Below, piece by piece: positions 3,001 to 6,000 of a DNA stretch of 13,761 bases. Location of the stretch: contig JAVVFY010000012.1 in assembly GCA_032249395.1 (NCBI GenBank), forward strand, positions 1-13,761, given 5' to 3'. This DNA comes from Candidatus Aenigmatarchaeota archaeon (GTDB lineage Archaea; Aenigmatarchaeota; Aenigmatarchaeia; CG10238-14; SpSt-28). The position numbers are program-made. Position 1 is the stretch's first letter. The number at the start of each line of letters is the position of its first letter.

Positions 3001-6000
3001 TTGGTAATGTTCTTCCAACTTTCTTGCTAAACTCCAAAGCTGTTTTATTTCATCTTCGCTTAAACACAAAACTTTTCTCATATTTTCGGGAACTTCTATT
3101 TCTTCCAATTCTCCGCCTTCTTTCGTTATTTTCATTTTCTCTTTAGTACCAACATGACTTTCCAAAACTTTTCCACTTTCCTTATCGATAACATAAGTAT
3201 CAGGATTAACTTCTCCACTAACAATAGCTTCTCCTTGACCATAAGAAGCTTCTACAACAATTTTGTCTTTCTCTCCAGTAACAGGATGAATTGTAAAACC
3301 TATGCCAGCTTTGTATTTTCCTTGTAAATATTCTTCTTTGCTCAAAACTCCGAGCTGTTTTTGAACTACAACCGCAATATAAACTTTTTCATGTTTGAAG
3401 CCTTTTTGTTGTCTATAGAATGTTGCTCTTGCGGTAAACAAACTCGCCCAACATTTTTGAACGGCTTTAACAACATTTTCCTTAGTTTTTATGTTTATCA
3501 AAGTTAGTTGCTGACCGGCGAAACTGGCTGTATTATGTGTAAAAATACCGTTTGCATTAAAGTTTTCTGCAAAAGGTACAACAAAATCATAAACAAATCC
3601 CTCATACTCTACTTCCTCTACTTTAACGATTTTATCCCAATACACATCTTTAAATAAAATTTCCTCTATTTCGTCTTCCACTCCAAATTTTTGTGCTTTA
3701 GTCAATAATAGCTTCTGACCGCCTTTAACTACTCCAGTATTCCAAGGAAGGAAACCTTTTAAAAACCTACCATTCTCATCTCTTTCTGATATCTCTACCT
3801 CTTCTCCCTCTATTGTTTGTTCTTCGTAAAAAGTTCTATGGCAATTTAAACACCTATACCTTTTTTTGTTTTTGTAAGGGGAAGTTATTTCCAGTTTTCC
3901 TTTACAGATCGGACAAAAACGTACTTTTATTTTTCTTCCAAATTTATCTAGTAGAAGCTCCTTCGCATTCAACTTATAACTTTCAATTTCATCGTGCTCT
4001 ACTTTATCCTCTATTTCAATTTTTTTAGCGGAAAACTTAGAGACCTCTAGAGCAAGTTTATATGAGTATTTTTTAGGAATAATAATCTTGTATGCTTTCT
4101 TTTTTCCTTCTCTTTTTCCAATAAAGGTCAAATAGCCTAAAGAAGATAAGAAATAAAGAAGCTCATACGCCAAACTTTCAAATTTCGTTACAAATTCGAA
4201 CCTTTCCCCAGATAGACAGCCGTCTCCGTCGAAATATCCTGCAATTAAGGAAATTTTTAAATTTCTTTTTAAATTGAACAAAAGACCATTTATGCTTTTT
4301 ACATTTTTCCCTTTACCTTTTCCTAATTTTTCCTTAACTGTTAGGAGTTTTATTAATCTAGCTAATGGTGCAGATTCGACCCTAACATCTAAACCATTAT
4401 CCTTTGGATTTAGTCCAAGCTCTTTAAATGCTTCTATACATTTTTTTCTGATTTTTTCGTCTTTCGACGTAATTATAATTTGATTTTTATAGATAGTGCC
4501 ATCAGCTATTATTACTCCCAACAGATATGCAAAATTTTCAGTTATTTTTATTTTAGATGGAATCGCATTCTCTTGCAAAATTTTATTTGAAACGTAAATC
4601 TTACCATCAATAACATTGAATTTAATTTTGTTTTTTCTAAAGAATTCTCCTACATCAATTTCATCAACAGTTTCCTCTACCGAAAATCTTCTTAAACATG
4701 GAATTAAACAATCTATTCCTTCCTCTAGAAATGTCGGAAATATATTTAAATCTTTATCAAGAACTATCAAAGAATGATCCTTTGATAATAGGATTTCTCT
4801 TCCGCTTCTTAGTTTAACTTTATAAAGTTTATCCTTTATATAATGCTTGTATACTCCAGCTTTTCTCCATTTCACTTCTCCTTTTTCAAAAGAGAGTACC
4901 TCTAAACTCTTGCCATTAGCCAGCTCACATATTTTGCTTATCCTATCAACAACAATTTCACCATTAATTTTCACGATAGTATACGAATCTGTAATAGACG
5001 GAACATCTTCAGCGGTGGCAGAACTTCTTACAGCAACATACTCTTCTTCTTTTCCAAACTCTTTTGACAGCTTTTCATAAGCTTCTATTATTTCCCTTTC
5101 TATTTCTTCTGGCATTTTTGCATTTTCAATTAATTCTCTAATCTTTTTTGTATTTTCTTCAAGATTTGTTGGATTGTTGAAATCTGTTTCTTTCAAAATC
5201 TTCAAAATTTTCCCTTTTAATTTAGTTTTCTTTAGAAACTCTTTATAAGCTTCAGCGGTAACAACAAAAGCTTGTGGGACTGGTAATCCCGCATTATACA
5301 TTTCCCCCAAATTAGCGGCTTTCCCTCCAACTAGAAGCAAATCATTTTTTGATAATTCTTTCAGCCATTTTATGAATTTCATAAAAAGTTATTCTTTTCC
5401 AATTAAAAAAGTTTATGAGAGTTGGAGTGCTTTTTAGTGGAGGAAAAGATTCAACTTTAGCCCTAATTAAAGCCAGCAGAGAGCATAAGATAGAATGCTT
5501 AATTTCTATGATATCAGAAAATCCAGAGAGTTACATGTTTCATGTACCCAACACTTCATTAACTAAATACCAAGCAGAAGCAATGGAAATTCCTATAATT
5601 CAAAAATTCACCAAAGGAGAAAAAGAGATAGAATTAACTGATTTAAAAAAAGCTATTAAAGAAGCAAAAGAAAAGTTTGGAATCGAGGGCATTGTTACCG
5701 GCGCAATTAAGTCGAATTATCAGTATTCTAGAATAAAAAAGATTTGTGATGAGTTAAGACTTGAATTAATTTCTCCACTTTGGCAAATGGATGAGGAAGA
5801 AGAATTGAAAGAAGTTTTAAGAGAAGGAATCAAAGCAATAATTGTTTCAGTCTCTGCTTATCCTTTGACAAAAGATTTTCTTGGGAAAGAAATAGATGAA
5901 GCGATTGTTAAAAAGTTCATTGGGTTTAGAGAAAAGTTTGGTTTTAATCCTTCTGGCGAGGGAGGGGAATACGAGACTTTTGTGATAGATGCGCCAATTT

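Follow-up and report, generated by a model that had tools for sequence, protein, structure and literature searches.

Can an archaeal lineage split and rescue its ribosomes without ABCE1 and Pelota, and does the locus studied here mark the place where ABCE1 was lost? Both factors are considered indispensable for disassembling ribosomes once a protein has been made. ABCE1 (Rli1) is regarded as among the best conserved and least dispensable proteins of Archaea and Eukarya and as their sole recycling motor; passages in two papers (PMC7196836; PMC6514570) describe it as "conserved and essential" in both domains. The window, a stretch of 13,761 nucleotides of contig C12, comes from a genome of Candidatus Aenigmatarchaeota (G000; 752,806 b, 25 contigs, 89.5% complete). 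A genome-wide survey's note had proposed that ABCE1 and Pelota are missing from the whole genus, and that the PEP synthase gene of the window, whose neighbor in sister genera is ABCE1, abuts another gene instead.

The genus, here called g1, is represented by nine genomes that are 58-89.5% complete, none reaching 90%, and its members are tiny archaea of hot-spring type. Its sister genera are g2 (one genome) and g3 (seven genomes). Comparisons were extended to 118 genomes of the order and to 201 genomes of the phylum, 92 of them high-quality. All genomes compared are metagenome-assembled (MAGs).

The PEP synthase junction

The junction in the window is made up of the following features:

1600..5382, minus strand: PEP synthase gene, an ORF of 1260 aa with its ATG at 5382
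5383..5414, no strand: AT-rich spacer of 32 bp between two divergent starts
5415..6098, plus strand: gene for Dph6 (diphthine-ammonia ligase), 227 aa, Pfam Diphthami_syn_2 (249 bits)

The PEP synthase carries the Pfam domains PPDK_N (353 bits), PEP-utilizers_C (268 bits) and PEP-utilizers, harbors an intein at about residues 150-617 (Pfam Intein_splicing and LAGLIDADG_3), and is 57-74% identical to the PEP synthases of g3. Dph6 scores 288 bits on the NCBIfam model TIGR03679 (Dph6_archaeal), whose cut-off is 197 bits. The PEP synthase start at C12:5382 does abut another gene, as had been noted. The spacer is too small for a gene, and reading its sequence revealed no ABCE1 remnant; when C12:5300-5500 and the gap on contig C1 described below were compared with ABCE1 by blastx, all the matches listed came from the C1 gap. 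The two genes also adjoin each other in G007, G001, G003, G008 and G002; those of G005 and G006 are separated by a 315-aa epimerase-like ORF.

The neighbor of the PEP synthase gene is thus Dph6 in G000 and ABCE1 in g3. The claim that ABCE1 lies beside this gene in the sister genera holds for g3 only, where the two are head-to-head in four of the five loci with enough flanking sequence (G112, G110, G108 and G113, not G111); in g2, ABCE1 is found beside a GTPase gene. The idea that the junction in the window is the scar of a deletion was discarded because the PEP synthase is the only flank shared with g3: the g3 genes beyond ABCE1 (a 215-aa ORF, TmcA/NAT10, S6e and aIF2-gamma) are absent or scattered in G000. 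The PEP synthase/Dph6 junction is not the ancestral ABCE1 site.

Search for ABCE1 and its ancestral site

ABCE1, a protein of about 590 aa with two ABC domains, was searched for with NF009945, the RLI model of NCBIfam (cut-off 469 bits). None of the nine g1 genomes exceeded the cut-off, which confirms that the gene is missing from G000 and its congeners. The best g1 match (E 3e-26) was a generic single ABC domain, and the best match in G000 (E 4.5e-15) was not an ABCE1 either. An HMM built from 13 ABCE1 sequences of the order, run with --max on all 5698 stop-to-stop frames of G000, detected only SMC, Rad50 and two single-domain ABC ATPases. The latter (C7:39087-39809 and C5:1780-2481, frame lengths 241 and 234 aa) scored 47 and 30 bits, and contain the only two ABC domains of the genome. 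The Fer4_RLI model (PF04068), an insensitive one, gave no match in G000 at E<=10 nor in any of the nine g1 genomes at E<=1; it was abandoned as an ABCE1 detector because a true g3 ABCE1, with 19.5 bits, falls below its 23-bit cut-off.

Elsewhere in the order, ABCE1 was over the cut-off in 41 of the 118 genomes, and a contig-end fragment in G083 was counted too (42 ABCE1-bearing genomes). The gene is present in the single g2 genome and in six of the seven g3 genomes. Scores where ABCE1 is present were 730-840 bits in the order and 730-800 bits in the sister genera; therefore, a g1 homologue would not have been missed. In the phylum sample, ABCE1 was found in 124 of 201 genomes (absent from 77), and in 54 of the 92 that are high-quality (absent from 38). 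The control, aRF1, was detected in 198/201 and 91/92, respectively. Genomes that lack both ABCE1 and Pelota include one assembled as a single contig of 874,869 b (G191), one of two contigs (G184), two of three contigs each (G206 and G065), and the g1 genome G005 (10 contigs).

In the ABCE1 tree, the order forms a clade (99/99), as do the g2 and g3 sequences of family f1 (100/100) and those of family f3 (100/99). Because the tree follows taxonomy, as expected from vertical inheritance, absence of the gene is best read as loss. At least one loss was counted in each of families f1, f3 and f6; in f2, f4 and f7, no genome carries ABCE1.

The ancestral ABCE1 site is head-to-head with the gene for a YGR210-like GTPase of the Obg family. 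Of the 42 ABCE1-bearing genomes in the order, 25 have the two genes side by side and divergently oriented, with 70 bp to 1.5 kb between them; the arrangement spans families f1, f3, f5 and f6, and is also found in G107, which belongs to the same family as G000. In G000 the site lies on contig C1:

C1:74913-80008: flank genes without a Pfam family
C1:80009-80970: empty ABCE1 slot, with only a 101-aa ORF and a Yip1-domain ORF
C1:80971-82137: YGR210-like GTPase gene (MMR_HSR1, YGR210-like_G4 and TGS domains)

Both flanks of the slot are intact and their gene order is the same as in ABCE1-bearing genomes. No ABCE1 remnant was detected in the slot by blastx (E>1) or with HMMs (negative scores). The locus is collinear in seven of the nine g1 assemblies, and family f4, g41 and G064 (g33) have the slot empty as well. 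In G065, G068 and G073, the slot contains ABC ATPases that were considered as half-ABCE1 remnants and rejected: they are ABC-2 transporter halves (ABC_tran paired with ABC2_membrane) and score 54-61 bits on the ABCE1 HMM. With 77 of 201 genomes devoid of the gene and empty syntenic slots in three families, repeated natural loss of ABCE1 in the phylum, as the survey had suggested, was upheld.

Pelota, aRF1 and other translation factors

Pelota was identified by a TIGR00111 score of at least 177.65 bits and by the domains eRF1_1 (Sm-like), eRF1_2 and eRF1_3. No g1 genome (0/9) exceeded the cut-off, so that absence of Pelota from G000 and its congeners was also corroborated; the sole TIGR00111 match in G000 was the C-terminal half of aRF1 (49.7 bits), and the other g1 genomes were alike. 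A shorter variant of about 200-235 aa, in which eRF1_3 follows eRF1_1 directly and the central domain, the usual contact of aEF1-alpha, is missing, was searched for with a profile (A1) built in this analysis. This two-domain "mini-Pelota" was detected in 19 genomes, among them that of g2 (274 bits) and six of the seven of g3 (53-73 bits), and in none of the nine g1 genomes. With HMMs that included the g3 mini-Pelota sequences, aRF1 was the sole G000 protein matched at E<0.2. The Pelota slot of G000 (C2:53402-53631, beside a conserved membrane-protein gene with the motif DEFxFxLLG) is empty.

The view that Pelota is confined to families f3 and f5 had to be given up, as the sister genera carry mini-Pelota and G115 (g4) carries a full Pelota. 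Contamination was dismissed as the source of the latter because its identity to the Pelotas of f3 and f5 is no more than 45-50%; the product of a neighboring gene shows 60% identity to that of a G000 gene. Altogether, it is very likely that ABCE1 and Pelota were cleanly deleted from the genus long ago, and that many related lineages lost them independently.

The aRF1 of G000 scores 347.4 bits on TIGR03676 (cut-off 234.7) and has the NIKS motif (AENIKSK). Its catalytic tripeptide is GGM, aligned with the GGQ found in PDB 4af1 and in human eRF1, and is followed by a mini-intein. The survey had coupled this alteration to ABCE1 loss; an examination of 71 aRF1 sequences showed no such tracking. The Q of GGQ is missing in 31 of 31 aRF1 examined in the order, with or without ABCE1, and outside the order GGQ is kept in 19 of 20 ABCE1-less genomes. 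A link with the frameshift-type start of aRF1 was likewise rejected since the motif is seen both in genera that lack ABCE1 (g1 and g33) and in genera that carry it (g9 and g14).

Bacterial-type factors were searched for in G000 with the following results:
(i). HflX (TIGR03156, cut-off 216.75 bits). The best match, 30.9 bits, was the G domain of another GTPase; the model was over its cut-off in 14/14 control genomes, with HflX found in 4/4 archaeal controls.
(ii). RRF (PF01765). There was no match at E<=1; the control gave matches in 14/14 genomes, over the cut-off in 10.
(iii). The RF-1 domain of bacterial-type release factors was not found.

A single copy of aEF-2 was detected, and aEF1-alpha, aIF6, aIF1, aIF1A and Pth2 are present.

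Ribosome splitting in ABCE1-free lineages

The boldest claim of the survey, that this lineage lives without the ABCE1-Pelota system in conjunction with an altered aRF1, stands as far as the missing genes are concerned and fails in the tie to aRF1; the route by which subunits separate is one that we infer. It is likely that whole lineages complete the translation cycle without ABCE1, Pelota, RRF and HflX. A tentative mechanism, somewhat short of even odds in our estimation, is passive dissociation of 70S ribosomes locked by initiation factors. After aRF1 frees the peptide, the post-termination 70S ribosome would fall apart by itself, with no dedicated splitting NTPase, and binding of aIF6 to the large subunit and of aIF1 and aIF1A to the small subunit would make separation irreversible. 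Stalled ribosomes would have no Pelota-type rescue: peptidyl-tRNA may drop off and then be handled by Pth2, or else stalls may simply be tolerated in very slow-growing, host-attached cells. The proposal draws on known biochemistry. The factors eIF3, eIF1 and eIF1A are reported to split post-termination complexes in vitro at low Mg2+, a finding that goes back to Pisarev and coworkers in 2007, and in Sulfolobus the subunits of the 70S ribosome associate loosely. Taken as a whole, the combination of gene loss and factor-free splitting is our best explanation, with a probability of roughly 0.5.

A different possibility, which we consider rather unlikely, is that ABCE1 has been replaced by a dedicated splitting factor that escaped recognition, the YGR210-like GTPase being the best lead. 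This GTPase adjoins ABCE1 as described above and is kept in 105 of the 118 genomes of the order and in 9/9 g1 genomes. Alternatively, aEF-2 might do the task together with aRF1 in the bacterial manner, or the factor might be encoded by one of the unannotated genes at C1:74913-80008, which are conserved and whose linkage to the slot persists in at least four families. Furthermore, eight genomes of g7, g12 and g13 have a full Pelota and no ABCE1, a hint that another partner drives splitting, which would favor an unknown factor over passive dissociation. However, neighborhood by itself is weak evidence, and the GTPase is equally present alongside ABCE1, so it does not appear upon loss. Inspection by eye of the 44 Walker-A frames of at least 150 aa in G000 revealed no twin-ATPase and no clearly novel NTPase. 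We know of no splitting activity in proteins of the YGR210/OLA1 type.

Episymbionts of the DPANN group have reduced genomes, and that of G000 is only 752,806 b; attached cells might conceivably obtain ABCE1 and Pelota protein from the host, or translate only when coupled to it. The reviews of the group that were consulted are silent on translation factors. This explanation seems improbable: there is no evidence of protein import in this phylum, close genera of equal size keep their own ABCE1, and the contacts of ABCE1 have co-evolved with its own ribosome, according to a passage in PMC7196836. Least probable of all is an artefact, by which the genes would be unassembled, unbinned or too divergent to recognize: all genomes are MAGs, none in g1 reaches 90% completeness, and G109 (g3) and G100 (g42) plausibly miss ABCE1 by incompleteness since their congeners have it, yet nine independent g1 assemblies lack the gene, the ancestral slots lie on unbroken sequence and are empty, genomes of one to three contigs also lack both genes, the aRF1 control was nearly complete, and ABCE1 stands out at 730-840 bits where present whereas G000 has only two ABC domains. 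When metagenomes were scanned for an ABCE1 of g1 type that had escaped binning, admittedly a weak test, none was seen among the best 80 of >552 matches; in the 79 best ABCE1-bearing metagenome loci, no neighbor was >65% identical to a G000 protein.

If whole lineages do manage without ABCE1, Pelota, RRF and HflX, ABCE1 would not be universally essential, and splitting would be either factor-independent or performed by an undiscovered factor. The GTPase linked to ABCE1 and the unannotated but conserved genes that flank the empty slot would be the first candidates for such a factor. Repeated loss, even in a genome made of a single 875-kb contig, provides a set of natural knock-outs. The questions that they open are the minimal requirement for subunit splitting, whether a recycling or rescue factor is still to be discovered, and the role of ABCE1-free Pelota and of the two-domain mini-Pelota. 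A practical consequence is that ABCE1 and Pelota, both in use as completeness markers (Pelota in PMC9258230), under-rate these genomes. No prior report of ABCE1 or Pelota loss was found in a literature search that did not extend to the supplementary files of PMC6514570 or of surveys of DPANN gene content; a figure of PMC6514570 on which rescue components each taxon has may already point to their being partly absent from DPANN.

Canonical recycling employs ABCE1 (Rli1) with aRF1/eRF1 or Pelota/Dom34. G000 keeps the remaining archaeal set and differs in having neither ABCE1 nor any Pelota. Bacterial splitting by RRF and EF-G or by HflX is likewise ABCE1-independent; however, G000 has no RRF, no HflX and a single aEF-2. 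A further comparison is with splitting in vitro by eIF3, eIF1 and eIF1A; G000 has aIF1, aIF1A and aIF6. To our knowledge, splitting by initiation factors is the only ABCE1-independent route of archaeo-eukaryotic type; it is not known to be sufficient in a living cell, and Archaea have no eIF3. Loss of a supposedly universal archaeal component from whole lineages has a parallel in the diphthamide synthesis genes, which are lost in Asgard archaea, Korarchaeota and Geoarchaea (PMC6143161). The events are of the same kind, and both distort completeness estimates based on marker genes. The diphthamide case concerns a modification pathway, whereas ABCE1 is the motor of a whole phase of the translation cycle.

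Distribution of ABCE1

The absence of ABCE1 and Pelota from the genus of the studied genome (G000; 752,806 b in 25 contigs, estimated completeness 89.5%) is real, old and repeated. When 118 genomes of the order were searched with the NCBIfam RLI model at a cut-off of 469 bits, ABCE1 was detected in 41 of them, or in 42 if a contig-end fragment in one genome (G083) is included. With this model the gene was found in none of the nine genomes of the genus (g1; completeness 89.5, 82, 88, 83, 58, 89, 86, 82 and 88%) and in neither of the two genomes of another genus, g4; in the sister genera it was present in the single genome of g2 and in six of seven of g3. 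As the scores reach 730-844 bits where ABCE1 is present in the order, the gene is easily detectable. An HMM built from 13 ABCE1 sequences of the order, run with filters off on all stop-to-stop frames of at least 40 aa, did not detect ABCE1 in G000 either, and its matches were limited to two single-domain ABC ATPases, SMC and Rad50. The claim of the genome-wide survey's note that the genus lacks ABCE1 is thus borne out.

Across 201 genomes sampled evenly from the phylum, 124 contain ABCE1 (54 of the 92 of high quality), while aRF1, a smaller, single-copy translation gene used as control, was present in 198 (91 of the 92). Because the control is present in nearly all of the same genomes, the ABCE1 deficit is too large to be caused by MAG incompleteness, and it is highly unlikely that the absence is an artefact. 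ABCE1 was also not found in contiguous genomes of the phylum, namely G191 (a single contig of 874,869 b), G184 (2 contigs), G206 and G065 (3 contigs each), nor in G005, the most contiguous g1 genome (10 contigs). In these five genomes the Pelota model matches aRF1 only.

In a maximum-likelihood tree calculated from 38 ABCE1 sequences (24 of the order, 14 of other orders), the order is recovered (support 99/99), as are its families f3 (100/99), f1, the family of G000, represented by g2 and g3 (100/100), and f6 (86/85). This topology indicates that ABCE1 was inherited vertically and was present in the f1 ancestor. The gene is both present and absent within f1, f3 and f6, and it is absent from all genomes of f2, f4 and f7; several independent losses are therefore needed. 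The vertical tree and the distribution over families thus uphold the repeated natural loss previously proposed.

The window junction and the ancestral ABCE1 site

ABCE1 had been described as the neighbour of the PEP synthase gene in sister genera, a position where another gene is found in G000. The window, which is contig C12 of G000, shows the following features at this junction:

1600-5382, minus strand: PEP synthase gene (ORF of 1260 aa, ATG at 5382) containing an intein with a LAGLIDADG domain
between 5382 and 5415: AT-rich spacer of 32 bp, from the PEP synthase start to the Dph6 start
5415-6098: Dph6

Head-to-head ABCE1 and PEP synthase genes were found in four g3 genomes (G112, G110, G108 and G113) and not in a fifth one, G111. 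The adjacency holds for g3 only, and it is not the ancestral arrangement, in which ABCE1 lies beside a GTPase gene. The far-side neighbours of ABCE1 in g3 (a 215-aa ORF, TmcA/NAT10, S6e and aIF2-gamma) are absent or dispersed in G000. In G112 (locus L019:5372-8240), ABCE1 is followed by the 215-aa ORF, which has no family, and by the TmcA/NAT10 RNA cytidine acetyltransferase; neither of the latter is matched in G000 by blastp at 1e-5. The PEP synthase/Dph6 junction is kept within g1, and its interpretation as a two-sided deletion scar was rejected because the far-side g3 genes are absent or scattered in G000.

The remaining window genes are ordinary: amino-acid kinase, alpha/beta hydrolase, UPF0047 protein, Hef-type helicase with a separate ERCC4 nuclease, DUF460, exosortase-like protein, coiled-coil protein and Toprim protein. 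The helicase (507 aa, 8187-9710) and the ERCC4/HhH nuclease (216 aa, 9715-10365) are neighbouring genes with a 4 bp gap, not one fused Hef. A free-standing LAGLIDADG ORF lies directly downstream of the PEP synthase gene (1019-1603), and the insertion in the g3 PEP synthase occupies a site different from that of G000. The genome is rich in inteins: aEF-2 lies within a 1235-aa frame, and long Cdc48-like, aIF2-gamma-like and RFC-like frames, read by eye, suggest that there are more (loci concerned: window 1019-5382, C3:76263-79895, C1:24645-28415, C1:101246-104038 and C2:41638-43866). One open frame of 11,435 aa on the minus strand of G000 (C3:15231-49535) accounts for about 4.6% of its sequence and has a homologue in another genome, G116, where the frame is at least 1421 aa long.

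The ancestral site was found by comparing ABCE1-bearing metagenome contigs with G000. In these contigs ABCE1 is divergent from an adjoining YGR210-like Obg-family GTPase gene, and its other side carries homologues of G000 C1:79493-80008, 78954-79508, 76844-78613 and 74913-76847. Of the 42 ABCE1-bearing genomes of the order, 25 have ABCE1 next to the GTPase gene, at distances of 70 bp to 1.5 kb, and the adjacency spans f3, f5, f6 and G107 (g2, in the family of G000). All flanking genes are kept in the same order on the 141-kb contig C1 of G000, where nothing but two ORFs, of 101 aa (coiled-coil) and 197 aa (Yip1 domain), lies between 80008 and 80971, with no ABCE1 remnant detected in the slot (blastx E>1, negative HMM scores). 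In 7 of 9 g1 assemblies the locus is collinear and too tight to hold a gene of 1.75 kb; in the other two it is split across contigs.

The GTPase has MMR_HSR1, YGR210-like_G4 and TGS domains, and the divergent pair is conserved (G000 C1:74913-82137, locus L257). ABCE1 is also linked to genes for two paralogues (about 175-185 aa each) and for two larger proteins (about 590-645 aa), all without a Pfam family.

Examination of the GTPase neighbourhood in 20 ABCE1-less genomes spanning genera yielded both flanks in 12. The flanks are just 190-300 bp apart in G090 and G094 (g41) and in G064 (g33), and a Yip1-like ORF stands alone between them in G033 and G034 (f4). The slot is occupied by an ordinary ABC-2 transporter pair in G065, G068 and G073, and by other small genes in G047, G049, G061 and G103.

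Pelota, mini-Pelota and aRF1

Full three-domain Pelota was found above the cut-off in at least 19 of 118 genomes, belonging to f3 and f5 plus G115 (g4); in G014 and G019 it is in pieces. The search also gave short frames that match the model over its first and its last third only, and 11 of these were aligned as profile A1. Such mini-Pelota proteins have about 200-235 aa, and Pfam detects eRF1_1 directly joined to eRF1_3, the central domain being missing (examples are loci L045:371-1027, L042:1132-1815 and L152:777-1385). Profile A1 detected mini-Pelota in at least 19 of 118 genomes: 12 of f6 (one in two pieces), G107 (g2) and six of seven of g3. All Pelota counts are lower bounds, as the matches listed leave out 17 weaker ones in the full Pelota search and 94 in the A1 search. 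Pelota is not, therefore, confined to f3 and f5 as the survey's note had stated. Its absence from the genus was confirmed: among the matches listed, profile A1 found no mini-Pelota in g1, and the sole match was the aRF1 C-terminus even with HMMs including g3 sequences.

Table. ABCE1 and Pelota (any form) in 118 genomes of the order
ABCE1 present, Pelota present: at least 29
ABCE1 present, Pelota absent: 13, among the matches listed
ABCE1 absent, Pelota present: at least 11
ABCE1 absent, Pelota absent: 65, among the matches listed

ABCE1 accompanies mini-Pelota in 17 of the at least 19 genomes; the exceptions, G100 and G109, are probably incomplete. The Pelota-only genomes, at least 11, are these two, G115, and eight of g7, g12 and g13 with full Pelota. 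In f1, f3, f5 and f6, Pelota is divergent from a gene whose protein carries a DEFxFxLLG motif at the N-terminus, and in G115 the gene on its other side is homologous to G000 C2:53632-54306. In G000 a gap of 230 bp separates these two neighbours, and it contains no remnant.

The sole eRF1-family gene of G000 is that of aRF1 (C1:130591-132207, locus L025:2592-4208; 347 bits on TIGR03676). Its NIKS motif is present, and the GGQ of PDB 4af1 and human eRF1 aligns with a GGM, behind which a mini-intein is inserted. The glutamine is missing in 31 of 31 aRF1 sequences read in the order (21 GGM, 8 GGW, 1 GGA, 1 GGF), independently of ABCE1 presence. In other orders (71 phylum genomes were compared overall), GGQ was found in 19 of 20 ABCE1-less genomes, and 20 ABCE1-bearing ones had 15 GGQ and 5 GGW; GGW occurs in 6 of these 40 sequences. 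An altered aRF1 does not, therefore, go with ABCE1 loss as had been suggested, either in the order or outside it. The change is remarkable by itself, yet without a link to the loss. A universal catalytic glutamine has been replaced across whole lineages.

Other traits of aRF1 were also observed. In ten genomes, G000 among them (C1 ~130582-130600, L025:2582-2597), no ATG, GTG or TTG precedes the conserved N-terminus in the aRF1 frame. A conserved motif, [AG]G-GTG-N6-ATT-TA[GA]-[CT], after which the aRF1 frame goes on in +1, was found in 10 of the 20 5' ends displayed (G000, G005, G002, G006, G008, G016, G015, G031, G030 and G064); it looks like a candidate autoregulatory +1 frameshift of the prfB type, located at a stop codon. 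NIKS, the motif that recognises stop codons, is replaced by NVKS in f3 and by NVKD in several genera of f6 (aRF1 of f3 and of the f6 genera g26, g42, g39 and g44; loci L075-L092). About 20 aRF1 proteins of the phylum are short (~360-375 aa), covering only model positions 2-317 of 403.

Ribosome splitting without ABCE1

HflX, present in 4 of 4 archaeal control genomes, was not found in G000, nor were RRF or a bacterial RF-1 domain. aEF-2 is single copy, and aIF6, aIF1, aIF1A and Pth2 are all kept. From this gene complement and general biochemistry, we tentatively propose, with a probability of about 0.45, that the post-termination ribosome may dissociate unaided, that aIF6, aIF1 and aIF1A would capture the separated subunits, and that stalls would be dealt with by drop-off plus Pth2. 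A serious if doubtful rival is that an unrecognised splitting factor stands in for ABCE1, since three genera have kept full Pelota while lacking ABCE1, and since the empty slot is still linked to the GTPase and to several unannotated genes. Supply of the missing factors by a host is unlikely.

A full-text search for ABCE1, Rli1, Pelota, COG1245 or ribosome recycling together with DPANN lineages or loss, with supplements outside its scope, found no published report of archaea without ABCE1. In passages of PMC8339473, ABCE1 is named only within a reference, and term searches of PMC8407114 and PMC6349945 gave nothing relevant. In two further articles, ABCE1 is called 'conserved and essential' (PMC7196836) and Pelota serves as a completeness marker (PMC9258230).
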